Assembly (NCBI GenBank): GCA_044226485.1
Contig: JBGAGY010000007.1
Coordinates: forward strand, 195,060-259,059
Direction: 5' to 3'
Length of the DNA: 64,000 nt
Origin: Anaerolineales bacterium
GTDB lineage: Bacteria; Chloroflexota; Anaerolineae; Anaerolineales; UBA6663
In this document: positions 6,851 through 62,116 of the stretch, piece after piece
How positions within the stretch are numbered: the stretch's first letter is position 1
How the letters are laid out: every line of letters begins with the position of its first letter
Program-made: the position numbers and the translations under genes
Notes under the pieces: model-generated
Told to the model about the DNA's origin: nothing
Databases searched by the model: none
What the model saw: only the letters and a program-made list of their open reading frames with translations

Positions 6851-7621
6851 TTAGGCGACCTCCTGATGGCCGATGATAGCGAGGAAGATCTCCTCAAGGC
6901 TCGGTTGCTTCTCGATGTATTCCACTTTTGCGGGCGGGAACTGCCGCTTCAGTTCCTCGAGGGTGCCGTTCGCGATGATCCGACCCTCATGCAGGATGGC
7001 AATGCGATCGGCGAGCTGCTCGGCCTCCTCGAGATATTGCGTGGTGAGAAAAACCGTCGTGCCGTTTTGGGCCAGCTCTTTGACCGTCTTCCAGACCTCG
7101 AGGCGCGCTTCAGGGTCGAGCCCAGTGGTCGGCTCGTCGAGGAAGATGAGCGGCGGTTTCCCGACCAGACTCATAGCGATGTCGAGCCTGCGGCGCATCC
7201 CTCCCGAGTAGGTGGACACCCTGCGGTCGGCGGCGGCCGCCAGGCCGAAGCGGTTCAACAACTCGTTCGCGATCGGACGCGGGGCTGCCAAATGCCGAAG
7301 CTCGGCGATCATGGTCACGTTTTCGCGCCCGGTCAGTATCTCGTCGACGGCGGCGAATTGCCCGGTCAGGCTGATCGACCCGCGCACCTGATCAGGCTGC
7401 GTCGCGACGTCGAAACCGTTGACCATGGCGGTGCCCCTGTCGTAGGGGAGCAGCGTGGTCAATATCTTGACGATCGTGGTCTTGCCTGCGCCGTTAGAAC
7501 CCAGCAGCGCGAACACGCTGCCCTTCTTGACCTCGAAATCGACGCCCTTGAGCACCTCGAGGGTTTTGTAGGACTTCTTCAGCCCGTTCACCTGGATGGC
7601 TTGATCGTGCAATGTGTTCAT
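6851..7621 (-). CDS. ABC transporter ATP-binding protein (DrrA-like)
   Basis: Walker A GSNGAGKTT, signature YSGGMRRRL, Walker B IFLDEPTTGLD. Confidence 0.9.
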   Translation of the reverse strand: MNTLHDQAIQVNGLKKSYKTLEVLKGVDFEVKKGSVFALLGSNGAGKTTIVKILTTLLPYDRGTAMVNGFDVATQPDQVRGSISLTGQFAAVDEILTGRENVTMIAELRHLAAPRPIANELLNRFGLAAAADRRVSTYSGGMRRRLDIAMSLVGKPPLIFLDEPTTGLDPEARLEVWKTVKELAQNGTTVFLTTQYLEEAEQLADRIAILHEGRIIANGTLEELKRQFPPAKVEYIEKQPSLEEIFLAIIGHQEVA

Positions 7622-51472: not shown

Positions 51473-52648
51473 TTACTTCCCCGAATTCCGCGTCGCCACG
51501 TCGAAGATCACGGCCGCGACCAGGACAGCGCCACGCAGGATGTACTGGTAGGCGATGCCGGTTCCCATCAGGTTCATGCCCGAGATCAAAGAACCCATCA
51601 CCAGAGCGCCGATGAGCGAGCCGGTCACCTTGCCGACGCCGCCCGCCGCCGACACGCCGCCGACATAGGCCGCCGCGATCGCGTCGAGCTCGAACAGATT
51701 GCCGGCCGTGGTCGTCGCCGATTGCAGCCGCGAGGTGAAGAGGATCCCCGAGAGCGCCGCGAGCATGCCCATTGAGCCGAACACCACATACGTGATCCGG
51801 CTGAAGCTGATGCCGCTGAGCTCGGCCGCCTCCGGGTTGCCGCCCACGGCGTAGATGTGCCGGCCGAGCACGGTCTCGGAGGTGATGAAGTGGTACAGGC
51901 CGACGATGATCAGGACGACGACCACCGTCCACGACAACCCGTTGTAGCCGGCCATGACCCAGGTGACGCCAGCCAGAATCAGCGAGACCACCACCAGCTT
52001 GACCATGAATATCTGGGAGGGCAGCACCTCGAAGTCGTACGACTGCTTCTTGCGCCGGTTGTTGAACTCACTGGCGATGTAGAGCACGATCGCCACAAGG
52101 CCGATGACCAGGGTCAGCACATGCACGCCAGCGCCCTGCACGATGTCCGGGATGTACCCGTTGCCGATCGCGTTGAAGATCGGATCGGGCACAATGATCG
52201 TGCCGGTGCCTTCGGTGGCGAGCAGCAGGGCGCCGCGATAGATCAGCCAGCCGGCCAGCGAGGCGACGAAGGCCGGGATTTTCATCCGTGCGACCAGGAA
52301 GCCCGTGATCAGGCCGCCAAACGCGCCGAGGACGAGCACCAACGGAATCGCGACGTAGACCGGCAACGACCAGGCGGTCAGGGCGATCGCCGCCAGCGCG
52401 CCGATGAAACCCGCCAGGAAGCCGACCGAGAGGTCGATCTGCCGGATGACGATAACGAGTGTCATGCCGACCGCGAGCACTGCGATGTACCCGGTCTGGT
52501 TGAACAGGTTGCTGATGTTGCGCGACGACAGGAACACGCCGTTGGTCAACACCCCGAACATGACCATGATCACGAACAGGGCGATCAACATCCCGTAGTC
52601 GCGGATGTTTTGGCGCAGGACTTTGCCAAGGCTCTGGGTAAATGACAT
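51473..52648 (-). CDS. CUT2 sugar ABC transporter permease (XylH/GguB-like)
   Basis: 391 aa, about 10-12 TM, typical family sequence. 12 nt downstream of the ATPase gene. Confidence 0.9.
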   Translation of the reverse strand: MSFTQSLGKVLRQNIRDYGMLIALFVIMVMFGVLTNGVFLSSRNISNLFNQTGYIAVLAVGMTLVIVIRQIDLSVGFLAGFIGALAAIALTAWSLPVYVAIPLVLVLGAFGGLITGFLVARMKIPAFVASLAGWLIYRGALLLATEGTGTIIVPDPIFNAIGNGYIPDIVQGAGVHVLTLVIGLVAIVLYIASEFNNRRKKQSYDFEVLPSQIFMVKLVVVSLILAGVTWVMAGYNGLSWTVVVVLIIVGLYHFITSETVLGRHIYAVGGNPEAAELSGISFSRITYVVFGSMGMLAALSGILFTSRLQSATTTAGNLFELDAIAAAYVGGVSAAGGVGKVTGSLIGALVMGSLISGMNLMGTGIAYQYILRGAVLVAAVIFDVATRNSGK

Positions 52649-52660
52649 CTTCGGCTCCCC

Positions 52661-54181
52661 CTAGTTCGTGGCCAGGTGCATGATCTTTTCTTGCGTCGCC
52701 TCGCCGATCGGCATTTCGCCGGCGATCCGTCCAGAGGCGACGATATAAATGCGATCGCTCATGCCCAGGATCTCGGGCAATTCAGACGAGATCATGAGGA
52801 TGCTCAGGCCTTGCTGAACGAGCTGATTCATGATCGTGTAGATCTCGTACTTCGCGCCGACGTCGATGCCGCGCGTCGGTTCGTCAAGGATCAGCAGGCT
52901 CGGGCTGACGAACAGCCACTTGCCCAGCGATACTTTCTGCTGGTTGCCGCCGCTCAGGTTGCCCACGGTCTGCTCGACGCTCGGCGTTTTGATGTTCAGC
53001 GATGAGCGATAGCCGTTGGCAACCTGGATTTCGCGGTTGGCGTCGACCACGCCGCGCTCGGCGAGCGCGCGCAGGTTGGCCAGGCTGATGTTCTGCTTGA
53101 CGTCCTGGATCAGGATCAGGCCGTCTCCCTTGCGGTCTTCGGTGACGTAGGCGATGCCGGCGCGGATGGCGTCCTCCGGCGTGCGCAGATCGCGGCGCGA
53201 TCCGTTGAGGTAAAGCTCGCCATTCAGCCGGTAGCCATCCGGGTTTCCGAAGACGCTCAGCGCGAGTTCAGTACGGCCGGAGCCCATCAGGCCGGCGAGC
53301 CCGACGATCTCGCCCTTGCGCACGTTGAGGTTCACGTCGCGCAGGATGCGGCGGCCACTGCCCGACTCGATGGCGTTCCAGTCGCGCAGTTCGAGCACCG
53401 TCTCGCCGAATGCGTGAGCCTCGCGGGCCGGGTAGACGTTGTCGATCTCGCGGCCGACCATGTGCTTGATCAGCATGCCCTCGGTGACGCTGTCGCCTTC
53501 CTTGTCGAGCGTGCAAATCGTCTGCCCGTCGCGCAGCACCGTGATGGTGTCGGCGATGGCCATGACCTCTTTGAGCTTGTGCGAGATCATGATGCAGGTC
53601 ACGCCGTGGGTGCGCAGATCGCGCAACAGGTCGAGCAGGTTGGCGCTGTCGTCCTCGTTGAGCGCCGCGGTCGGCTCATCGAGGATCAGGAGCTTGACGT
53701 CCTTGCTCAGCGCCTTGGCGATCTCGACAAGCTGCTGCTTGCCGACGCCGAGCTCGCGGATCGTGGCCGCCGGGTTGACGTTCAGACGCACCTTCTTGAG
53801 CATCTCGACCGACTGTTTGATCGTCTCATTCCAGTCGACGAGCAAGCCGTTGCGGACTTCATGGCCCAGGAAGATGTTCTCGTAGACCGTCAGGTCGGGC
53901 ACGAGCGCCAGTTCTTGATAAATGATGGCGATGCCGGCGCGCTCGCTGTCGGCGATGCCCGAGAAGCGTTGAGGCACCCCGGCGAAAAGGATCTCGCCCG
54001 AATATGAGCCGTGCGGGTAGACGCCGCTGAGCACCTTCATCAGCGTCGACTTGCCGGCGCCGTTCTCGCCGACGAGGCAGTGGATCTCGCCCTCGGCGAC
54101 CTTGAAGCTGACGTTGTTCAGGGCTTTGACGCCCGGAAATTCCTTGGTGATGTTGCGCATCTCAAGGATCGGGGGTTTCAT
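52661..54181 (-). CDS. CUT2 sugar ABC transporter ATP-binding protein, tandem NBD (XylG/GguA/MmsA-like)
   Basis: 506 aa. NBD1 has GENGAGKST, LSVGKQQ-type signature and ILDEPTAAL; NBD2 has GLMGSGRTE, LSGGNQQK and LILDEPTRGID. Confidence 0.95.
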   Translation of the reverse strand: MKPPILEMRNITKEFPGVKALNNVSFKVAEGEIHCLVGENGAGKSTLMKVLSGVYPHGSYSGEILFAGVPQRFSGIADSERAGIAIIYQELALVPDLTVYENIFLGHEVRNGLLVDWNETIKQSVEMLKKVRLNVNPAATIRELGVGKQQLVEIAKALSKDVKLLILDEPTAALNEDDSANLLDLLRDLRTHGVTCIMISHKLKEVMAIADTITVLRDGQTICTLDKEGDSVTEGMLIKHMVGREIDNVYPAREAHAFGETVLELRDWNAIESGSGRRILRDVNLNVRKGEIVGLAGLMGSGRTELALSVFGNPDGYRLNGELYLNGSRRDLRTPEDAIRAGIAYVTEDRKGDGLILIQDVKQNISLANLRALAERGVVDANREIQVANGYRSSLNIKTPSVEQTVGNLSGGNQQKVSLGKWLFVSPSLLILDEPTRGIDVGAKYEIYTIMNQLVQQGLSILMISSELPEILGMSDRIYIVASGRIAGEMPIGEATQEKIMHLATN

Positions 54182-54213
54182 AGGCGGGTGGCTCCCTGAA
54201 CGCGAAGCGGGGG

Positions 54214-54247
54214 CAGGCGGGGCGAAGGTATTCCTTCGCCCCGCCTG
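54214..54247 (-). repeat. intercistronic 15-bp-stem hairpin after the binding-protein gene (minimal member of the heptamer family)
   Basis: CAGGCGGGGCGAAGG-TATT-CCTTCGCCCCGCCTG, 18 nt after the SBP stop and 32 nt before the ATPase start. No U-tract. Confidence 0.8.
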
Positions 54248-54265
54248 TTTCAGACAGTGGTTAGT

Positions 54266-55414
54266 TTACGGCAAACCGGTGAAGTCGGAAGCCTGGTAGT
54301 AGCCGGAGTCGATCAACGCGGCCTTGACGTTGTCCTTGTCGACCGAGATGACCTCGGACTGCTTGGCAGGGACGTCGATCTTGCCGTTGTTGTACGAGCC
54401 GGTCGTCGCGGGCTTCTCGTCCTTCAGCAGGGCCACGGCCATGGTAATGGCGTCGGCCACGAGCGTGCGGACGTCCTTGAAGACCGTCATCGACTGCTTG
54501 CCGTCGATGATGTACTGCACTGAAGCCTTCTCGGCGTCCTGGCCGGTGACGACGTAGGACGCGACGTCCTTGTCGGCGGCGAAGGCGTCGGCGATGGCGC
54601 GGGCCGTGCCGTCGTTCGGCGCGAGGATGAAGACGTTGCCCTTGTCGGCGGCGGCTGTGGCGGTCAGGTTGGCTTCAGCCAGGCCCTTGGCCGTGTTGAA
54701 GTCCCAGTTCGTCGTGACCTGGCCGATGATCGTGCTCATCTCATCGCGGCTCAGCTCGGCCTTGCCCTGCAGGGCCACGGCTTCGCTCGAGTTCTTGATC
54801 ACGTACGTGCCGTCAGCGATCTTGGGCTGCAGCACCGACCACGCGCCCTGGAAGAACAGGAAGGCGTTGTTGTCGGTCGCCGCGCCAGCGTAAAGGAAGA
54901 GCGGGTTGCCGGTGCCCGTGGTCTTGTTGACCAGGTACTGGGCCTGGGCGGCGCCCACTGCCACGCTGTCGAACGTCACGTAGTAGTCGACGGCGTCGGT
55001 GTCGGTGATCAGGCGGTCATACGACACGACCTTGATGCCGGCGGCGCGGGCGGCCTCAGCGGCGGCAGCGGCGGCAGCGCCGTCCTGCGGGCAGATGATG
55101 AGGACCTTGATGCCCTTGGTGATCAGAGCTTCGACGTTGGCCTTCTCCTTCGCGGAGTCGCCCTGGCTGAACAGGATCTCGACGTCGTAGCCGGCCTTGG
55201 TCAGCGCGTCCTTGAAGCGGGTCTCGTCCTGTACCCAGCGGGGCTCGTCCTTGGTCGGAAGCACGATGCCGACCGCGAGCTTCTCGCCCGTCTCGCCAGA
55301 ACCTGAAGGCGCGGCGGTGGGGGCGGCTGCCGGCGTGCAGGCGGTCATCAGAAGGGAAGCGCTGGCCACGAGGGACAGGGCACCCATAGCAAACCGATTG
55401 AATGTGCGACTCAT
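54266..55414 (-). CDS. ChvE-like multiple-monosaccharide ABC substrate-binding lipoprotein
   Basis: Signal plus lipobox LLMTAC. Whole-length resemblance to ChvE (VVSYDRLITDTDAVDYYVTFDSVAVG, DNNAFLFFQGAWSVLQPKI, VTGQDAEKASVQYIIDGKQSMTVFKD). SD AAAGGAGAG. Confidence 0.9.
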   Translation of the reverse strand: MSRTFNRFAMGALSLVASASLLMTACTPAAAPTAAPSGSGETGEKLAVGIVLPTKDEPRWVQDETRFKDALTKAGYDVEILFSQGDSAKEKANVEALITKGIKVLIICPQDGAAAAAAAEAARAAGIKVVSYDRLITDTDAVDYYVTFDSVAVGAAQAQYLVNKTTGTGNPLFLYAGAATDNNAFLFFQGAWSVLQPKIADGTYVIKNSSEAVALQGKAELSRDEMSTIIGQVTTNWDFNTAKGLAEANLTATAAADKGNVFILAPNDGTARAIADAFAADKDVASYVVTGQDAEKASVQYIIDGKQSMTVFKDVRTLVADAITMAVALLKDEKPATTGSYNNGKIDVPAKQSEVISVDKDNVKAALIDSGYYQASDFTGLP

Positions 55415-55500: not shown

Positions 55501-56565
55501 CTAGTGGCTCGGATCGCTCAACGAGCCCAAAGTGTCTTGGATGACCTGCCGCAGCGCCGCCACGTCAAGGTCTTTTTTGTCGAGATAGGCCACGGCGCCG
55601 GCATTGAAACCGAGCCGTCGGAACTCCCGATCCGGGTAAGCGCTGATCAGCACGACGCGCGTCTCCGGCGAAATCGCCTTCAGGCGCCGCGTGCATTGGA
55701 TGCCGTCTTCATCGCGCAGCACTACGTCGATGAATGCCAGATGCGGATGGGTCCGCTCGGCCGCGACCAGCGCGTCGGCGATGTCGCCGGCTTCAACCAC
55801 ATGCGACGATGGATGAGTCTTGCCGATCAGCCGCGCCATCTGCTCGCGGTAGCGCGGGTTGTCGTCGACGAGCAGCACGTTCAGCTGCCCGGCCGGCCTG
55901 ACTTCGGGCACCTGGCTCACCGGCTCCGGATCGCGCAGCACATCCGGATAGCGCATCGCGAAGTTCGTGGCCTCGAGCCGGCTCTCGACCGCCAGCGATC
56001 GATACAGGCTGGTCAGGTGGTTCTCGACCGTCTTGACGCTCAGGTCCATCGCCTGCGCGATCTTGCGGTTGTCGAAGCCCTGCATCAGCAGCCGCAGCAA
56101 CTCACGCTGCCGTCGCGTGAGCACCGGCGTCGCTCGCGGCGGGGCGGGCTGACGGTGCACCAGCCGATCGACCAGTTGCGCCGGGATCCAGCGCTCGCCT
56201 GCCACAACGCGCGCCACCGCCAGCTGCAGGTCCGCCAGCGGCTGATCCTTCAGGTGGTAACCGTCCACGCCCGCGCCCAACAGACCTACCAGGTAGGCCT
56301 CGTCGGCGTAGGCGCTGACCACCAGGATCTTCATCGTCGGGTACTGTGTTTTGAAGGTGCGGACCGCCTCGACGGGCTCGAACTCCGGCATCGCCACGTC
56401 GATGACGATCAAATCCGGCTGCCACTCGGCCACTGCCGCGACAAGATCCGGCCCGTTGCCGACCTCGGCAACAACCTCGAGCTCGGGCCGGCCGGTCAGG
56501 GCGTTCCTCAGACCCGCCCTCACGACCGCGTGGTCGTCGGCGAGAACAATTCGAATGGCAGCCAT
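55501..56565 (-). CDS. response regulator with REC - LuxR/NarL HTH - REC architecture
   Basis: REC1 (LADDH..IVIDVAMP..VVSAY..YHLKD), HTH (LTRRQRELLRLLMQGFDNRKIAQAMDLSVKTVENHLTSLY), REC2 (LVDDN..AFIDVVL..LISAY..YLDKKD). Confidence 0.9.
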   Translation of the reverse strand: MAAIRIVLADDHAVVRAGLRNALTGRPELEVVAEVGNGPDLVAAVAEWQPDLIVIDVAMPEFEPVEAVRTFKTQYPTMKILVVSAYADEAYLVGLLGAGVDGYHLKDQPLADLQLAVARVVAGERWIPAQLVDRLVHRQPAPPRATPVLTRRQRELLRLLMQGFDNRKIAQAMDLSVKTVENHLTSLYRSLAVESRLEATNFAMRYPDVLRDPEPVSQVPEVRPAGQLNVLLVDDNPRYREQMARLIGKTHPSSHVVEAGDIADALVAAERTHPHLAFIDVVLRDEDGIQCTRRLKAISPETRVVLISAYPDREFRRLGFNAGAVAYLDKKDLDVAALRQVIQDTLGSLSDPSH

Positions 56566-56610
56566 ACCGTGACCCTTTCTATGTAACAGAACCCACCCCT
56601 TCAGGTCATT

Positions 56611-56638
56611 GGGGGATGCCCCCTAGGGGGATTTCCCC
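56611..56638. promoter_or_regulatory. G5-CTAG-C5 quasi-palindrome in the divergent control region (operator candidate)
   Basis: GGGGGATGCCCCCTAGGGGGATTTCCCC; the core CCCCCTAGGGGG (56619-56630) is a perfect 12-nt palindrome. Confidence 0.3.
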
Positions 56639-56679
56639 TAATGCGGAGTGGGCTAATCGGGTAGGAAAATGACGGAAGA

Positions 56680-56769
56680 GCGAGGAGCGTAGAGCGAGGA
56701 GCGAACGCTGCCGCGCAAGTTCGAGCGCGAGATCGCGGTAGCGTTCGCTCTTCGCTCTACGCTCCTCGC
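56680..56769. repeat. heptamer-periodic hairpin repeat, copy b (30-bp stem, 30-nt loop)
   Basis: Left arm GCGAGGAGCGTAGAGCGAGGAGCGAACGCT pairs with right arm AGCGTTCGCTCTTCGCTCTACGCTCCTCGC with a single G-T pair. Heptads are GAGCGAG/GAGCGTA/GAGCGAG/GAGCGAA. Confidence 0.9.
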
Positions 56770-56797
56770 CACTCGAGTATTATCTACCCAAGCCACC

Positions 56798-57880
56798 ATG
56801 CCTATTCGACTGGTCCTCTGCTCGATCCTCGTGTTCGTGCTGGTCGGCTGTGTCCCGCCGACGCCGGCGTCGACGCAGGGCAAGATCGCGTTGCTGTTGC
56901 CCGAGACGAAGACGACGCGTTACGAGTCGCACGACCTGCCGATCTTTCGCGCGCAGCTTGCCGCTCGCGGCTTCAACGTCGACCGTGACCTCATCTACAG
57001 CAACGCCACCCAGGATGCCGCGGCGCAGCAGCAGCAGGCCGAAGCGGCGCTGACCAACGGCGCGAAGGTGCTCGTCCTCGATCCGGTCGACTCCAGCTCG
57101 GCCACGGCCATCGCCGAGCTGGCCCAGTCACGCGGCGTTCCCGTGATCGCGTACGATCGATTGATCACCGACTCGTCGGCCGTCGATTACTACGTGTCGT
57201 TCGATAACGTCATGGTCGGGCGGTTGCAGGCCGAAGCGCTGCTCGACGCGCTCAAGGATGTGAAAGACCCGCGCATCGTGATGTTGAACGGCTCGCCGCT
57301 CGACAGCAACACGACCCAGTATCGTTTGGGGGCGATGGCCGTGCTGGGCAGCCGTGTGACGATCGCGCAGAGTTTCGACGTGCCCGACTGGAGTCCTGAC
57401 AAGGCCCAGGAGTTCATGGCCCAGGCGCTCACTGCCCTCGGCAATCGCGTCGACGGCGTCTACGTCGCCAACGATGGCATGGCCGGCGGCGCGATCGCGG
57501 CGATGAAAGCCGCGGGCCTCGAGCCACTGCCGCCCGTGACCGGCCAGGACGCCGAGCTGGCGGCCATCCAACGCATCCTCGTCGGCGAGCAGTACATGAC
57601 CGTCTATAAGGCGATCCACCGCGAAGCCACCGCCGCCGCTGACCTGGCCTACGTGCTCTGGCAGGGCGGCAAGCCGGACGAGGGGCTCTTCAACAGCCAC
57701 GTCGACAACGGGCGCATCAAAGTGCCCGCGATCCTGCTTCAACCCGTCAGCGTCACCCGTGATAACCTGCGCGCCACGATCTTCGCCGACAAGTTCTGGG
57801 ACCCGAGCGAGGTCTGCGTCGGCGAGGTCGCGGCCGCCTGCAGTGAGACCGGCATCGACCTCGGGGAGGGCGCTCCATGA
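56798..57880 (+). CDS. XylF-like sugar-binding lipoprotein (sensor-module binding protein)
   Basis: Signal plus lipobox VLVGC. Collinear with E. coli XylF (VIAYDRLITDSSAVDYYVSFDNVMVGRLQAEAL; GSPLDSNTTQYRLGAMAVL; VTGQDAELAAIQRILVGEQYMTVYKAI; NNGRIKVPAILLQPVSV). Confidence 0.9.
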   Translation: MPIRLVLCSILVFVLVGCVPPTPASTQGKIALLLPETKTTRYESHDLPIFRAQLAARGFNVDRDLIYSNATQDAAAQQQQAEAALTNGAKVLVLDPVDSSSATAIAELAQSRGVPVIAYDRLITDSSAVDYYVSFDNVMVGRLQAEALLDALKDVKDPRIVMLNGSPLDSNTTQYRLGAMAVLGSRVTIAQSFDVPDWSPDKAQEFMAQALTALGNRVDGVYVANDGMAGGAIAAMKAAGLEPLPPVTGQDAELAAIQRILVGEQYMTVYKAIHREATAAADLAYVLWQGGKPDEGLFNSHVDNGRIKVPAILLQPVSVTRDNLRATIFADKFWDPSEVCVGEVAAACSETGIDLGEGAP

Positions 57881-59088
57881 CCACCGCCGGCGCCAGCCAT
57901 CTGCCGCGTGTGCTCGGCCAGGCGTGGGCGCGCATCAACCGCCCTGACTTCGCCTACGTGCCGACCGTTGTCGGCCTCGCGTTGGTCTGGCTGGTCCTTC
58001 AACTCGTCAATCCCAACTTCCTCAGCCCGCTCAACCTGACCAACCTGATGCTGCAGATCGCGGCCATGGGCACGATCGCGGTTGGTCTCGTGCTCGTGTT
58101 GTTGCTGGGCGAAATCGACCTCTCGGTCGGCGTGGTCAGCGGCCTGGCCGCCGTCGTCATGGCCGTCCTCAACGTCAAGGCCGGCGTCCCCGGCACGATC
58201 GCGGTGATGGCCGGTGTCGGGACCGGGCTGGCGATCGGGCTCGTTCAGGGCAGCTGGATCACCAAACTGCGGATCCCATCGTTCATCGTCACGTTGGCAG
58301 GGCAGTTGGCCTGGCAGGGAGCTTTGCTGTACGTCCTTGGCAATACCGGCACCGTCAACCTGCGTGATCCGTTCATCCTCAGCCTGGCCGGCACGTTCTT
58401 CAAACGCGATGTGCCCGGCGGTGAGGCGCTGAGTTGGGTGATTGGCGGCGTGTTCGTCAGCGTGTACGCGATCGGGTTGGGGTGGGAACGTCGCCAGCGC
58501 TTGAGCGCCGGCCTTGCCGCGCGTTCGTTACGGGCGGTGATCGTGCAGGTGGTCGTGATCGCCGTCGCCGGGCTCGGCGCCATCGTGATCCTCAATGCGG
58601 ACCGCGGGTTGCCGTCGGCGCTCGTGTTGTTCATCGGCGTGGTGGTCGTGTTCGACTTCATCACGCGGCGGACGGTCTTCGGGCGCAGCATCGCCGTCGT
58701 CGGCGGGAACCCTGAGGCGGCCCGGCAGGCAGGCCTCGACGTCGACCTGATCCGCATCACGGTCTTCGGCCTGGCGTCGATGCTGGCGGCCTTCGGCGGC
58801 ATCCTGGCGGCCTCGCGTTTGCTGGCCGTTCACCAGGCCTCAGGCAGCGGCGACGTGTTGTTGAACGCCATCGCGGCCGCCGTCATCGGGGGTGTGAGTG
58901 TCTTCGGCGGCCGCGGCAGCGTGTGGTCGGCTGTCCTCGGCGCTTTGGTCGTCGGCTCGATCTCGAACGGCATGGATCTGCTCGTCGTGGCGGCGCCGGT
59001 CAAGTTCATGGTCACCGGGGCTGTGTTGCTCGGCGCCGTCACGCTCGACGTCCTGGCGCGTCGCCGTCGCATTGCCGCCGGCGAGTAA
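57877..59088 (+). CDS. CUT2 sugar ABC permease (XylH/RbsC-like)
   Basis: 403 aa polytopic. The start overlaps the upstream stop (ATGA), indicating translational coupling. Confidence 0.9.
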   Translation: MTTAGASHLPRVLGQAWARINRPDFAYVPTVVGLALVWLVLQLVNPNFLSPLNLTNLMLQIAAMGTIAVGLVLVLLLGEIDLSVGVVSGLAAVVMAVLNVKAGVPGTIAVMAGVGTGLAIGLVQGSWITKLRIPSFIVTLAGQLAWQGALLYVLGNTGTVNLRDPFILSLAGTFFKRDVPGGEALSWVIGGVFVSVYAIGLGWERRQRLSAGLAARSLRAVIVQVVVIAVAGLGAIVILNADRGLPSALVLFIGVVVVFDFITRRTVFGRSIAVVGGNPEAARQAGLDVDLIRITVFGLASMLAAFGGILAASRLLAVHQASGSGDVLLNAIAAAVIGGVSVFGGRGSVWSAVLGALVVGSISNGMDLLVVAAPVKFMVTGAVLLGAVTLDVLARRRRIAAGE

Positions 59089-59094
59089 GGGTTG

Positions 59095-59198
59095 TTGCCA
59101 CGAATGACACGACTTGAAAAGGATGGGCCCGGGTGGCCAGGTGAGTTGTCCGAGTCAACTGGGTGCCGGTTCGTTTCAATGTGTCCAATTCGTGGCAA
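59095..59198 (+). promoter_or_regulatory. long-range inverted repeat enclosing a structured intercistronic region upstream of the NBD::kinase gene
   Basis: TTGCCACGAAT-GACAC (59095-59110) is complementary to GTGTC-c-AATTCGTGGCAA (59181-59198): 16 bp with one bulge, enclosing 70 nt that include an inner AGTTG/CAACT hairpin. Confidence 0.35.
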
Positions 59199-59235
59199 AG
59201 CTCTTCGCTGACAGGGTATCCGATAGGAAGTGGAC

Positions 59236-60819
59236 ATGAGCGAACCTGTGCTCCGCGCACTTAACCTCTCGAAACGTTTCGGGCGCCTCTGGGCCCTCGA
59301 GAACGTCAGCTTCGAGGTGCAGCCGGGCGAGGTGGTCGGCGTCGTCGGTCGGCGTGCCTCGGGCAAATCGACCCTGCTGCACGTCGTCGCCGGAACGTAT
59401 CCGCCGCAGACGGGTGAGATCTGGCTGGGCGACCAGCGTCTGCGCTTCGCGGGGCCGCCGGCGTCGCGGCGGTATGGCATCGAGCTCGTTCATCAGCGTC
59501 CCGTCTTGTCCGATCAGATCGACGTCACCCAGAACATCTTCCTTGGACGCGATCGCAGCTGGCGCGCGCAAATCGGGTTCCCGGATCTGGCCTGTCAGGC
59601 GCGTCGCGCTCGCGAGTTGCTGGCCGAGCTCGATACTCCAGCGGATCTGCTCTACGCGCGGCTCGATGGCCTTTCGGACGAACAGCGTCAGATCGTGGCG
59701 TTGGCCAGGGCCTTCTGCCAGCCGGCTCGCGTCATCCTGCTCGACGAGGCGCTGGCCGCGCTCAGCTTCCAACGCCAGGAGCGCTGCCTCACGCTGATCC
59801 GACGCCTGTCGGCGCAGGGCATTGCCTTCCTCATCGCCAGCGACAACCTCAAGCACCTGTTCGAGGTGACCCACCGCATCCTCGTGCTCTACGAAGGGCG
59901 GCTTGTCGCTGATCAACCGACCAGCGAGGCCACGCCGCGCGAAATCGTCGAACGCATCGTCGGCGCCGCGCAACATGAGCAGGTGACGCCCGTGATCTGG
60001 GCGCTCGAGAGCTATCACCAGTTGCAGCAACAGGCTGAAGACCTGCGACGCAAGCAGACGGCGCTTCAGGAAGATCTGCAGGTACAGGGTTCGCTCAACC
60101 AGCAACTGCTTGTGCGGATGCGCAATCAGGTCGACGCGCTCGATCGGCTCAACGTCGCTCTGCAGGCCGCGCAGCGCCGCCTGATGACCGAACGCGAGCA
60201 GGAGCGCAAAGCGCTGGCTCGTGAACTGCATGACTCGATGATCCAGGACCTGCTCAGCTTCAACTACCGGCTCGAAGACCTCGAGGGCCACACCGCCGAC
60301 GTCCAGCAGCGCGCCGAGCTGGCAGAACTGCGCGAAGACATCCGCACCATCGTCAGCGACCTGCGCCGGCTGTGCAGCGACCTGCGCCCGCCGACGATCG
60401 ACAGCCACGGCCTCACCGCGGCGATTCGTTCGCACGCGCAGGAATGGGCTGACAAGCACCGCGTCGGCCTGGACCTCGACGTCGATAGCGCCCTCGGCCG
60501 CCTGCCCGAACCGATCGAGTTGTCGATCTTCCGCATCGTGCAGGAGGCGTTGAACAACGTGCGCAAGCACGCCTCAGCCCGGCATGTGCGTCTTTCGCTT
60601 CAGCGCACGGCGTCAGCGCACCTGCTCCTGCGCCTCGAAGATGACGGCCTCGGGATGACCGAGCCCGTCAACCTTGCGACTCTCTCGGCCACCAAACACT
60701 TCGGCCTGCTTGGGATCAGCGAACGCGTGGCCCTGTTGGGCGGCACCATGCGCGTCGACACCGCCCAGCAAGGCGGGGTGTCGCTCAGCATCGAGATCCC
60801 CAGCCCGTCGCCGACTTGA
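59236..60819 (+). CDS. ABC nucleotide-binding domain fused to HisKA_3/HATPase_c histidine kinase (NBD::HK)
   Basis: Residues 1-~245 are a single CUT2-type NBD (GRRASGKST, VHQRP, LSDEQRQ, VILLDEA). About 80 aa of heptad-rich helix follow. Then H-box LARELHDSMIQDL, N-box QEALNNVRKHA, DDGLGM and GLLGISERV. The ORF is uninterrupted. ATG 59236 is preceded by GGAAG (a GTG at 59230 is also possible). Confidence 0.85.
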   Translation: MSEPVLRALNLSKRFGRLWALENVSFEVQPGEVVGVVGRRASGKSTLLHVVAGTYPPQTGEIWLGDQRLRFAGPPASRRYGIELVHQRPVLSDQIDVTQNIFLGRDRSWRAQIGFPDLACQARRARELLAELDTPADLLYARLDGLSDEQRQIVALARAFCQPARVILLDEALAALSFQRQERCLTLIRRLSAQGIAFLIASDNLKHLFEVTHRILVLYEGRLVADQPTSEATPREIVERIVGAAQHEQVTPVIWALESYHQLQQQAEDLRRKQTALQEDLQVQGSLNQQLLVRMRNQVDALDRLNVALQAAQRRLMTEREQERKALARELHDSMIQDLLSFNYRLEDLEGHTADVQQRAELAELREDIRTIVSDLRRLCSDLRPPTIDSHGLTAAIRSHAQEWADKHRVGLDLDVDSALGRLPEPIELSIFRIVQEALNNVRKHASARHVRLSLQRTASAHLLLRLEDDGLGMTEPVNLATLSATKHFGLLGISERVALLGGTMRVDTAQQGGVSLSIEIPSPSPT

Positions 60820-60820
60820 G

Positions 60821-60869
60821 AGCGAGGGGAGGAGTGCGAGGGGCGAAGGGCGAGGGGCGAGGGGCGATC
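60821..60869 (+). repeat. heptamer tandem array, copy c (seven GGCGAGG-type units, no complementary arm)
   Basis: AGCGAGG GGAGGAG TGCGAGG GGCGAAG GGCGAGG GGCGAGG GGCGATC, starting 1 nt after the TGA of the NBD::HK gene. Confidence 0.9.
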
Positions 60870-61000
60870 AAGAAGGGCTTGACCGGACCGAAAGACAGAT
60901 CGCGTCTTGATGACGCTTCCGCGCGCATCCCACGTTGCCGCCGACTTCAAATACAATTCAGGAATCACGCAACGATCCGGCGATCGTCAAGGAAACCAAT

Positions 61001-61996
61001 ATGAAGGCCGTTGAAACGTTCACGCTCGAAGACACAAGCAGCGCGCGGTTGAGCGCCTCGCCCGAAGGGGTGCGCCGCTTTCAGGAGGCGCAATTCGGCC
61101 TCTCTGTGCACTGGGGCCTGTACAGCCTCGGTCACAGCGGCAATGAATGGACCTACTTCATCGATCGGATCCCGTTCGAAACCTATCGGTCCCGCATGAG
61201 CCAGTTCAACCCCGTGCGCTTCAATGCCGACGAGTGGGGCGACCTGATGCTCGAGGCCGGCCAGAAGTTCCTGATCATCACCACGAAGCACCACGATGGA
61301 TTCTGTCTTTTTGATTCGGCGCTGACCGAGTTCAAGAGCACGCGTGCGCCGTTCATGCGCGACATCATCGGTGAACTCGCGCCGGCGCTGGCCGCGCGCG
61401 GCATCGCCCTGCATTTCTATTACTCGCTGGTCGACTGGACCCATCCCGCCTACCGAAGCGATTGGCCGGCCTATGTCGCCTACTATCAGGGCCAGATCCG
61501 CGAACTGTGCACGCACTACGGCGAGATCGGCGGTTTCGTCTTCGACGGTTACTGGCCTCGCAACGTGTTGGAGACCGACGACGAACGCGACTACTTCGCG
61601 GCGCGCGGTGATTGGGACCTGGCCGGCACCTATGACCTGATCCACAGCCTGCAGCCCAACGCCGTCGTCGGCAACAACACTCATGTGCTGCCGATGCAGG
61701 GCGAGGACTATCAGGTGTGGGAGCTCGATCTTCCGGGCGAGAACACCATCGGCTTCAACACCACCGATGTCGGCAACAAGCCGCTGGCCTCCTGGTGGAA
61801 CATCAACGTCGGCTGGTCGTATCAACCCTGGAACCACCGTCTGCGCAGCGCCGACGACATCCTCGCGCTTCACCGCAAGATCCGCGAGCGCAACGCCACC
61901 TTCATCCTCAACGTCGGCCCGCGCCCGTGGGGCGACATCCACCCCGACGAGCAGAGTGTCCTGAGGCAGGTGGGGCAGGGGCTTCGAAAGGCGTAG
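61001..61996 (+). CDS. alpha-L-fucosidase (GH29 family)
   Basis: [12 protein letters not shown]...[33 protein letters not shown]...[14 protein letters not shown] is typical of GH29. Start set at ATG 61001 (MKAVETF). Confidence 0.85.
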
Positions 61997-62116
61997 AGCG
62001 AGGGGGAAAAGCGGGGGGCGAGGAGCGAGAGGCGAAGGGCGAGGGGCGAGAGGCGAAGGGCGAAGGGCGAAATTCGCGTAAGCGTTCGCCCTTCGCCTCT
62101 CGCCTCTCGCCCCTCG
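61997..62116. repeat. heptamer-periodic hairpin repeat, copy d (8+ units vs 4.5 units)
   Basis: Starts directly after the TAG of the fucosidase gene. The left arm has contiguous GGCGAGG AGCGAGA GGCGAAG GGCGAGG GGCGAGA GGCGAAG GGCGAAG GGCGAAA (62017-62072). Loop TTCGCGTAAGCG. Right arm TTCGCCC TTCGCCT CTCGCCT CTCGCCC CTCG (62085-62116). Confidence 0.9.

Follow-up and report, generated by a model that had tools for sequence, protein, structure and literature searches.

Does an ATP-binding cassette (ABC) importer's nucleotide-binding domain (NBD) still act as a motor when it forms the front end of a histidine kinase and, if it does not, what would it contribute there? The question is raised by a gene at 59236..60819 (forward strand) of a 64,000-nucleotide stretch of Anaerolineales DNA (Chloroflexota; assembly GCA_044226485.1, contig JBGAGY010000007.1, positions 195,060 to 259,059), analysed as a whole and called the window below. 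The gene is an intact open reading frame (ORF), stop codon included, for an NBD-histidine kinase fusion of 527 amino acids; residues are numbered from the ATG at 59236, the alternative start being a GTG at 59230. Pfam places ABC_tran at residues 23-175 (89 bits against a cut-off of 25), HisKA_3 at 325-388 (45 bits) and HATPase_c at 431-525 (36.8 bits), all above their cut-offs. That the NBD is not a motor is well supported by comparison of its sequence with those of its relatives. That it acts as an ATP-dependent dimerisation switch, as a sequence-only reading of this DNA had proposed, is plausible and the best available model. The evidence tips slightly in favour of a pseudo-ATPase that still binds nucleotide, docks on a CUT2-type permease and reports the state of a sugar-binding protein to the kinase.

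The NBD spans residues 1-245 (59236..59970) according to NCBIfam, an AlphaFold2 (AF2) model and Foldseek. Predicted local distance difference test (pLDDT) values of the model are about 80-90 over this region, Foldseek matched it to MalK, MetN, CbiO, PhnK and LptB with E-values of about 1e-17 to 1e-18, and HMMER found 547 matches of the fusion among PDB NBD sequences. This soluble domain is the entire N-terminus (residues 1-243), in which neither Pfam nor the model detected another domain. Characterised HisKA_3 kinases typically sense through a membrane-spanning or periplasmic part, of which the fusion shows no sign in Pfam or in the model.

Walker A (GRRASGKST, G38-T46, 59347..59373) is intact, and so is Walker B (ILLDE, I167-E171, 59734..59748), which provides Asp170 and the catalytic Glu171; both strings had been quoted correctly beforehand. 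Alignment to relatives identifies the Q-loop residue as Gln87 (59494..59496), and the A-loop aromatic residue is Phe15. The D-loop region following Walker B reads ALAALS (A172-S177, 59749..59766), again as previously reported, where CUT2 NBD1 sequences have PTAALN; NBD1 of the tandem ATPase encoded nearby has exactly this P-T-A-A-L-N. The fusion NBD misses two defining ABC catalytic motifs, the LSGGQ signature and the H-loop histidine. The first is degenerate (LSDEQ, L146-Q150, 59671..59685), a feature that the earlier motif list had overlooked. In the second, the H-loop (switch) column is occupied by Asp203 (59842..59844), within a stretch that had been transcribed accurately: the sequence around the H-loop reads LIASDNLKHLFEV, and from L199 onwards it reads IASDNLKHLFEV. 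As to Walker A itself, positions 39 and 40 are mostly basic or polar in the clade of this protein (Arg or Gln at 39 and Arg at 40, as in GRRGAGKS and GQRGSGKS), in contrast to the GENGAGKS of ordinary CUT2 NBD1 domains; these arginines might conceivably pair with D148/E149 of the other chain.

Five lines of evidence, namely three alignments, a spacing and the AF2 model, agree in placing Asp203 in the H-loop column. HMMER aligned the query segment 'asdnl' without gaps to 'vshdl' of solved NBDs. When MAFFT aligned the query with the CUT2 ATPase encoded nearby (52661..54181, reverse strand), Asp203 fell under the His of the latter's NBD1 (ISHKL) and the Ser of its NBD2 (ISSEL), and hmmalign of 124 tandem CUT2 ATPases to the family profile again returned Asp203 as the H-loop column. 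In the query and in NBD1 of the neighbour alike, this column comes 33 residues after the Walker-B Asp. In the model, a strand (197-201) leads through the loop S202-D203-N204 into a helix (205-211), a layout that sets Asp203 at the position of the switch His and His207 one turn into the next helix. The sequence-only reading had allowed that a proper alignment might bring the His of KHLFEV into the H-loop column. The alignments with the neighbour and with the 124 tandem ATPases do not do so: no His falls in the column, and His207 (59854..59856, in KHLF) lies four residues downstream. Its candidacy as a displaced H-loop His is ruled out, as it stands at +4 in every alignment, belongs to the following helix and is replaced in relatives.

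The motif columns were then counted in 120 metagenomic homologs (56-96% identity, full-length, same three-domain architecture) and in 84 genome loci, 204 relatives when pooled, and compared with those of the 124 tandem CUT2 ATPases and of 11 free single-NBD proteins. The lack of the switch His, which the sequence-only reading had asserted for this protein, extends to every fused relative (0/120 and 0/84, hence 0/204). By comparison, the His is present in 123/124 tandem NBD1 domains, the remaining one having Gln, and the 11 free NBDs all read SH, NH, TH or DH at this point; the difference between fused and ordinary NBDs gives p ~3e-95 by Fisher's exact test. What replaces the His is Asp in 113, Glu in 6 and Asn in 1 of the metagenomic relatives, an acidic residue in 119/120 of the query's clade. 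The genome loci carry Asp (43), Asn (19), Lys (6) or Gln (5), the rest being scattered among Thr, Gly, Ser, Pro, Tyr, Val and Ala; Asn or Gln (24/84) is frequent in the other major subclade. As for His207, it is conserved in 114/120 metagenomic and 69/84 genome relatives, and its column holds Gln, Ser or Cys in more distant fused representatives, with Leu or Asp also found among family members.

In the signature, Glu149, at the fourth position, occurs in 120/120 and 83/84 relatives (203/204) and is a new hallmark residue of the family, and Asp148 is found in 110/120. The corresponding GG is present in 124/124 tandem NBD2 domains, and free single NBDs read LSGGQRQ. At the catalytic-Glu column, where all 124 tandem NBD1 domains have Glu, the metagenomic relatives have Asp in 108 cases and Glu in 10, and the genome loci Asp in 50, Glu in 28 and Asn in 6. 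The earlier observation of an intact Walker-B Glu is right for this protein, but Glu171 is an exception here, shared with few relatives. The nucleotide-binding residues present another picture. Lys44 of Walker A is kept in 120/120 and 81/84 relatives, as in 124/124 tandem NBD1 domains, and G38, G43 and K44 are invariant in the metagenomic set. Asp170 of Walker B is found in 120/120 and 83/84 (203/204), Gln87 in 109/120 and 81/84 (190/204) and an A-loop Phe or Tyr in 113/120; in the D-loop region of the same 120 proteins, L173 recurs in 109, L176 in 119 and S177 in 111. Over the whole NBD the mean pairwise identity is 56%, with 28% of columns at least 90% conserved, and the domain is under purifying selection.

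The lost H-loop His, the new Glu149, the Asp or Asn of the catalytic column and the kept nucleotide-binding residues together point to a conserved, re-specified pseudo-ATPase, in which the residues that would hold nucleotide and Mg have been retained and those that would act on or sense the gamma-phosphate are gone. The earlier proposal that the domain is no motor is upheld by the same three columns across the family. A decaying or pseudogenised NBD was also considered and is ruled out by the intact ORF, the purifying selection and the conservation of new residues, Glu149 and, within the clade, Asp or Glu at 203.

How much catalysis might such a domain retain? To a single ATP site, one NBD contributes Walker A, Walker B and its A-, Q- and H-loops, and its partner the signature, ATP serving as glue between the two (PMC7756269). 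Degenerate sites typically combine deviations in the catalytic Glu, the H-loop and the signature, yet hold ATP and keep the NBDs associated (PMC7756269); compared with the deviations listed there, the fusion NBD shows the degenerate-site pattern, with H-loop and signature altered and Walker A retained. The sequence-only reading had taken NBDs without the H-loop His typically to bind ATP without turning it over, a rule that is not absolute, as MRP1 and Pdr5 illustrate (PMC7756269). It is on this point that one may picture the NBD as a slow ATPase timer, a slowed motor in which low-rate hydrolysis by Glu171 would reset the sensor after each docking. This protein does have Glu171, Walker A, the Walker-B Asp and the Q-loop; a changed H-loop need not abolish function, and Asn and Gln, the very residues tolerated in MRP1, are often found in the other major subclade. 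However, ~90% of the 120 closest relatives, and 56/84 genomes, have Asp or Asn where this protein has Glu171, and hydrolysis is therefore not what selection maintains. Moreover, the H-loop residue here is Asp, which would bring a negative charge near the gamma-phosphate, and not Asn or Gln; and every composite site of a homodimer would have its signature Gly changed to Glu at the fourth position, where in canonical signatures even Gly to Ala alone is reported to disturb catalysis (PMC3268037). We regard such a timer as unlikely.

Some full-length members have lost still more. Walker A is destroyed in P0125 (DHESQAIFE), P0129 (ERDETGIST), L076 (DRTGTSKST) and L072 (GRSGSGITT), and to judge from these sequences the NBD fold is evidently kept without the P-loop Lys or Gly; because of them, nucleotide binding appears dispensable in some lineages. 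Does this make the NBD of the present protein a nucleotide-independent adaptor to the coupling helices of the permease, with Walker A kept for fold stability only? The relatives without a P-loop (P0125 and P0129) or without its key residues (L076 and L072) favour such an adaptor, as does an H-loop column that varies freely across subclades among Asp, Asn, Lys, Gln, Thr, Gly, Ser and others. Yet all 120 metagenomic relatives, without exception, have the Gly, Gly and Lys of Walker A, as do at least 81/84 genome loci, and the conservation of the A-loop aromatic, the Walker-B Asp and the Q-loop Gln is hard to explain without bound nucleotide and Mg. In the query's own clade, furthermore, the H-loop column is strictly acidic. 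A pure adaptor is thus distinctly improbable, and the nucleotide-binding pseudo-ATPase remains the reading that we carry forward.

The output half of the protein is an intact HisKA_3 kinase (NarX/DesK/LiaS-type) with its H-box His, N box and G boxes present. The dimerisation and phospho-acceptor domain (residues 325-388, 60208..60399) has His332 at 60229-60231, and the HATPase_c catalytic domain covers residues 431-525 (60526..60810); across 121 sequences there is no variation at H332, D333, N441, D469, G471 or G473. The NBD is joined to the DHp by a helical linker of ~80 residues (244-320, 59965..60195), modelled by AF2 as helices 244-281 and 287-352 with a pLDDT of only ~50-64. With a mean pairwise identity of 70% and 45% of columns at least 90% conserved, it is as constrained as the DHp. 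The sequence-only reading had argued that one NBD per chain gives the 2:2 stoichiometry needed by an obligately dimeric kinase, which is reasonable: the closest unfused relatives are single-NBD proteins, presumably homodimeric ATPases.

What would the NBD dock on? The fusion gene is the last of three co-oriented genes that make up a sensor operon. The first (56798..57880, forward strand) encodes a XylF/ChvE-like sugar-binding protein (Pfam Peripla_BP_4; best NCBIfam match xylF/ChvE, below cut-off), the N-terminus of which (…LVGC) looks like a lipoprotein signal. The second (57877..59088, forward strand) encodes a CUT2-type permease, GguB/XylH-like by NCBIfam and BPD_transp_2 by Pfam, which is the presumed docking partner of the NBD-kinase. 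The ends of these two genes overlap by 4 nt, and there is therefore no ATPase gene between them. A tblastn search of the 64-kb window with a free NBD yielded no motor ATPase for the sensor operon; its matches were the fusion, each half of the tandem ATPase nearby and, at ~6980-7597, an unrelated ABC gene. A promoter scan of positions 56400-61100 gave 0 promoter-like sites, and terminator-like sites were at chance level.

Divergently from the operon lies a response regulator gene of REC-GerE-REC type by Pfam (55501..56565, reverse strand). Its layout is unusual in that the second REC follows the DNA-binding domain, an arrangement that recurs beside the NBD-kinase in other loci. Next to it, a complete CUT2 transporter (51473..55414, reverse strand; Pfam) consists of a binding protein (54266..55414), the tandem ATPase already used for alignment (52661..54181) and a permease (51473..52648), and is the likely target under the control of the regulator. 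The two halves of its ATPase differ, NBD1 having ISHKL and NBD2 ISSEL together with LSGGNQQ. On the other side of the operon, G-rich tandem repeats with a 7-nt period (GGGCGAR) run from the stop codon of the NBD-kinase gene (60806-60881) and reappear ~1.2 kb downstream (61995-62116). After the second array comes a copy in inverted orientation; the arms, of 32 nt each, show 94% complementarity across a gap of 13 nt, and the two arrays flank an alpha-L-fucosidase gene (60998..61996).

A total of 86 loci were classified by tblastn with the window's own proteins. Type A, represented by the window and by L005, L006 and L007, has the regulator followed by binding protein, permease and NBD-kinase, with no ATPase in the operon. 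Type A' loci (L035, L040-L042, L044, L058, L068, L070 and L085) run from binding protein through free canonical NBD and permease to NBD-kinase, which amounts to a complete transporter plus a kinase. Type B, the commonest, has the NBD-kinase and regulator beside or directly downstream of orthologs (70-85% identical) of the other transporter of the window, made of a binding protein (often a tandem double one), tandem ATPase and permease, and has no dedicated permease. The doubled binding protein of type B loci (L001 10955-13123, L003 10885-13050 and many more) is either a single protein of ~720 amino acids with two Peripla_BP_4 domains or the product of two adjacent genes; the window has a single copy next to the transporter, and its sensor operon contains a second, diverged copy (31% identical). 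A motorless operon like the present one is thus a minority arrangement, most loci carrying a complete transporter with its own canonical ATPase, and for this reason the kinase appears to be an alternative partner of the permease and not a converted transporter.

The common denominator of these loci is an NBD-kinase next to a CUT2 permease. Among the 35 well-flanked loci (at least 6 kb on both sides), a CUT2 permease gene occurs in the flanks of 34 and the cognate regulator in 32, at a median distance of 189 nt. Another NBD-kinase, P0150 (L088 615-5278), sits in an operon with regulator, binding protein and permease and no ATPase, a convergent instance of the motorless sensor layout. Most simply, the degenerate NBD would take the place of an ATPase under the permease dimer, the permease being dedicated, as here, or shared with a motor ATPase. 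That the fusion has no permease seat and is a soluble kinase reporting cellular ATP/ADP, or a heterodimer with a transporter ATPase or free NBD, could draw on its lack of a transmembrane segment, on the predominance of loci without a dedicated permease and on the adjacent canonical NBD of type A', which could supply an intact LSGGQ and His, but is very improbable given the permease linkage in 34/35 loci, the window and P0150 operons with binding protein and permease and no other NBD, the conserved Q-loop, which is the contact to membrane domains, and the fact that heterodimerisation is unworkable where the ATPase is a tandem and runs counter to obligate homodimerisation of the kinase.

The docked pseudo-ATPase may accordingly be pictured as follows, permease docking, ATP occlusion and the direction of signalling being what we infer from the observed motif states, conservation and neighbourhood. 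Two chains would pair via their HisKA_3 helices, with the NBDs docked beneath the CUT2 permease dimer (57877..59088), where a motor ATPase would otherwise sit. When the sugar-loaded binding protein (56798..57880) docks, the permease would shift to a state that lets the NBDs close around ATP, which would serve as glue with slow turnover or none. The change in NBD spacing would be passed through the conserved ~80-residue helix to the DHp and set kinase versus phosphatase output. The kinase would then act on the REC-GerE-REC regulator (55501..56565, reverse strand), and the latter on the operon of the neighbouring true transporter.

Several points weigh against this scheme. ATP binding, the absence of hydrolysis and permease docking are deduced from sequence and genomic context. 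Slow hydrolysis is possible because this protein keeps Glu171, and the loss of the H-loop His is not universally disabling: MRP1 still transported with Asn or Gln at its canonical site (NBS2), and Pdr5 tolerated H-loop changes (PMC7756269). The two acidic signature residues might hinder ATP-dependent closure and, because the sites of a homodimer would be degenerate on both faces, ATP-driven closure cannot be assumed. The four members without Walker A suggest that the family can evidently work without nucleotide. In type B loci, with no dedicated permease, the NBD-kinase would have to use the permease of a transporter already equipped with a tandem ATPase, jointly with the latter. Lastly, the linker through which the signal would travel is predicted by AF2 with low confidence (pLDDT 50-64).

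The fusion is far from an isolated case. Its homologs number 2,458 matches at E <=1e-5 among scored candidates and at least 578 loci in GTDB species-level genomes; the 80 loci listed all belong to Chloroflexota, among them that of a cultured organism, Ornatilinea apprima P3M-1 (L022). Among genomes, L007, an Anaerolineales metagenome-assembled genome, matches most closely (87% identity), and another metagenome holds a 96% identical, fully syntenic copy (L005). In NCBIfam the NBD scores highest with the XylG, YtfR, AraG, RbsA and GguA profiles, over their N-terminal half, at ~125-140 bits against cut-offs of ~700-850. Even the highest equivalog score, 139.8 bits with XylG (PRK13549), compares with a required 699; with scores so far below cut-off and no tandem NBD1-NBD2, the fusion is not a CUT2 ATPase equivalog. 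Whether its NBD stems from a tandem NBD1 or from a single-NBD ATPase is answered differently by each method. NCBIfam favours NBD1, whereas by BLAST the NBD is closer to free single-NBD ATPases (38%, E 2e-52) than to NBD1 of the neighbour (30%), and a BLOSUM62 neighbour-joining tree, which carries no support values, has free NBDs and tandem NBD1 together as the sister group of the fused clade, NBD2 being the outgroup.

In the same tree, the fused clade also holds P0158 (GAF-HisKA) and P0130, which has MalT-like tetratricopeptide repeats (TPR) and GerE. The latter, a metagenomic protein of 549 amino acids with an NBD 51% identical over residues 2-307 (LSAEQ, LLLDN and SSDDL), joins a degenerate NBD directly to the MalT-like TPR and GerE helix-turn-helix; it is a one-component version that recalls MalK-MalT. 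Three further proteins, P0144, P0150 and P0142 (NBD-HisKA_3 or NBD-PAS-HisKA_3), nest inside tandem NBD1 and, from their place in the tree, look like independent fusion events. Since P0144 and P0150 keep GENGAGKST, DEPT and SHRL, H-loop His included, the loss of this His is a derived trait common to the large Chloroflexota family and not required for fusing an NBD to a kinase. A more general proposal, which we advance tentatively and with somewhat less than even confidence, is that the fusion is one member of a large Chloroflexota class of sensor kinases (at least 578 loci, with NBDs also on PAS/GAF kinases and a MalT-like factor) in which a pseudo-ATPase plugs into a CUT2 permease, replacing or competing with the motor, so that ATP would be only glue and binding-protein occupancy would be read as kinase output.

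A search of the full-text literature found no description of an ABC NBD-histidine kinase fusion; most subscription journals were outside its scope, for which reason this absence is provisional. Current annotation gives proteins of the family no more than the label "ATP-binding cassette domain-containing protein" or "histidine kinase". The fusion is apparently undescribed, a familiar degenerate NBD in an unfamiliar role, degenerate ATP sites being well known, but only as silent counterparts to a catalytic one inside a functioning ABC pump. If the docked pseudo-ATPase is real, the coupling of an importer, from binding protein through permease to NBD closure, would be convertible to signalling without energy expenditure. 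It would also constitute a natural system in which NBD closure gives a biochemical readout, phosphorylation by the kinase, and a widespread type of two-component input domain in Chloroflexota. Graded variants are at hand for dissecting nucleotide binding: canonical (P0144 and P0150), with H-loop and signature lost (this protein) and with Walker A lost as well (P0125).

Among known systems, the degenerate sites of asymmetric exporters (Pdr5/Cdr1 NBS1, TAP1, CFTR NBD1 and MRP1 NBD1) resemble the fusion NBD in the deviations of the H-loop, the catalytic Glu (Asp, Asn or Ser) and the signature; they bind ATP, hydrolyse little of it and hold the NBDs together (PMC7756269). The likeness is closest with Pdr5/Cdr1 NBS1, where the Walker-B Glu is changed to Asn and the H-loop His to Tyr (PMC7756269) and where Glu stands at the fourth signature position as it does here, LNVEQ compared with LSDEQ (PMC7756269, PMC3268037); in Cdr1 this Glu is functionally essential (PMC3268037). 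Exporters, however, combine one degenerate with one canonical site in a working pump, whereas a homodimer of the fusion would have two degenerate sites and no canonical one; the fusion NBD, in addition, is of importer lineage and joined to a kinase. Walker A also differs. In the degenerate site of Pdr5 it reads GRPGSGC, with Cys in place of the Lys that the fusion NBD keeps.

CUT2 ATPases (RbsA, XylG, GguA, AraG and MglA) give the best profile matches, to their N-terminal half, and work with partner proteins of the same kind as those of the fusion. In their NBD2, too, the H-loop His is naturally missing (111/124 have Ser), and Walker A is degenerate. They are tandem proteins, unlike the single NBD of the fusion, and the His and Glu of their NBD1 (123/124 and 124/124) are neither of them a trait of the fused family. 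The closest unfused relatives, the free single-NBD CUT2 ATPases whose genes accompany those of NBD-kinases in related loci (for example L035 5767-6564 and L044 7455-8225), share the single-domain format and, after the H-loop, the motif N-L-x-x-[ILV]-F-E-V. They differ from the fusion NBD in their canonical GDNGAGKST, LSGGQRQ, ILDEPTAALG and ISHNL and in having no output domain.

The passing of transporter status to a regulator has its own precedents. In the MalK-MalT pair of E. coli, an importer NBD subunit conveys this status to a LuxR-type regulator with MalT-like repeats; unlike the fusion, MalK is a fully active ATPase and the two are separate proteins. BceAB-BceS and the SLC5-STAC-kinase fusions CbrA and CrbS are systems in which the kinase reads the state of a transporter and does not itself bind the ligand (PMC9100948), as would be the case here. 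The Bce kinase is a separate membrane protein and its transporter ATPase is active, and CbrA and CrbS join a membrane symporter to the kinase, whereas in the present fusion the part joined to the kinase is a cytoplasmic, catalytically degenerate ABC ATPase subunit.

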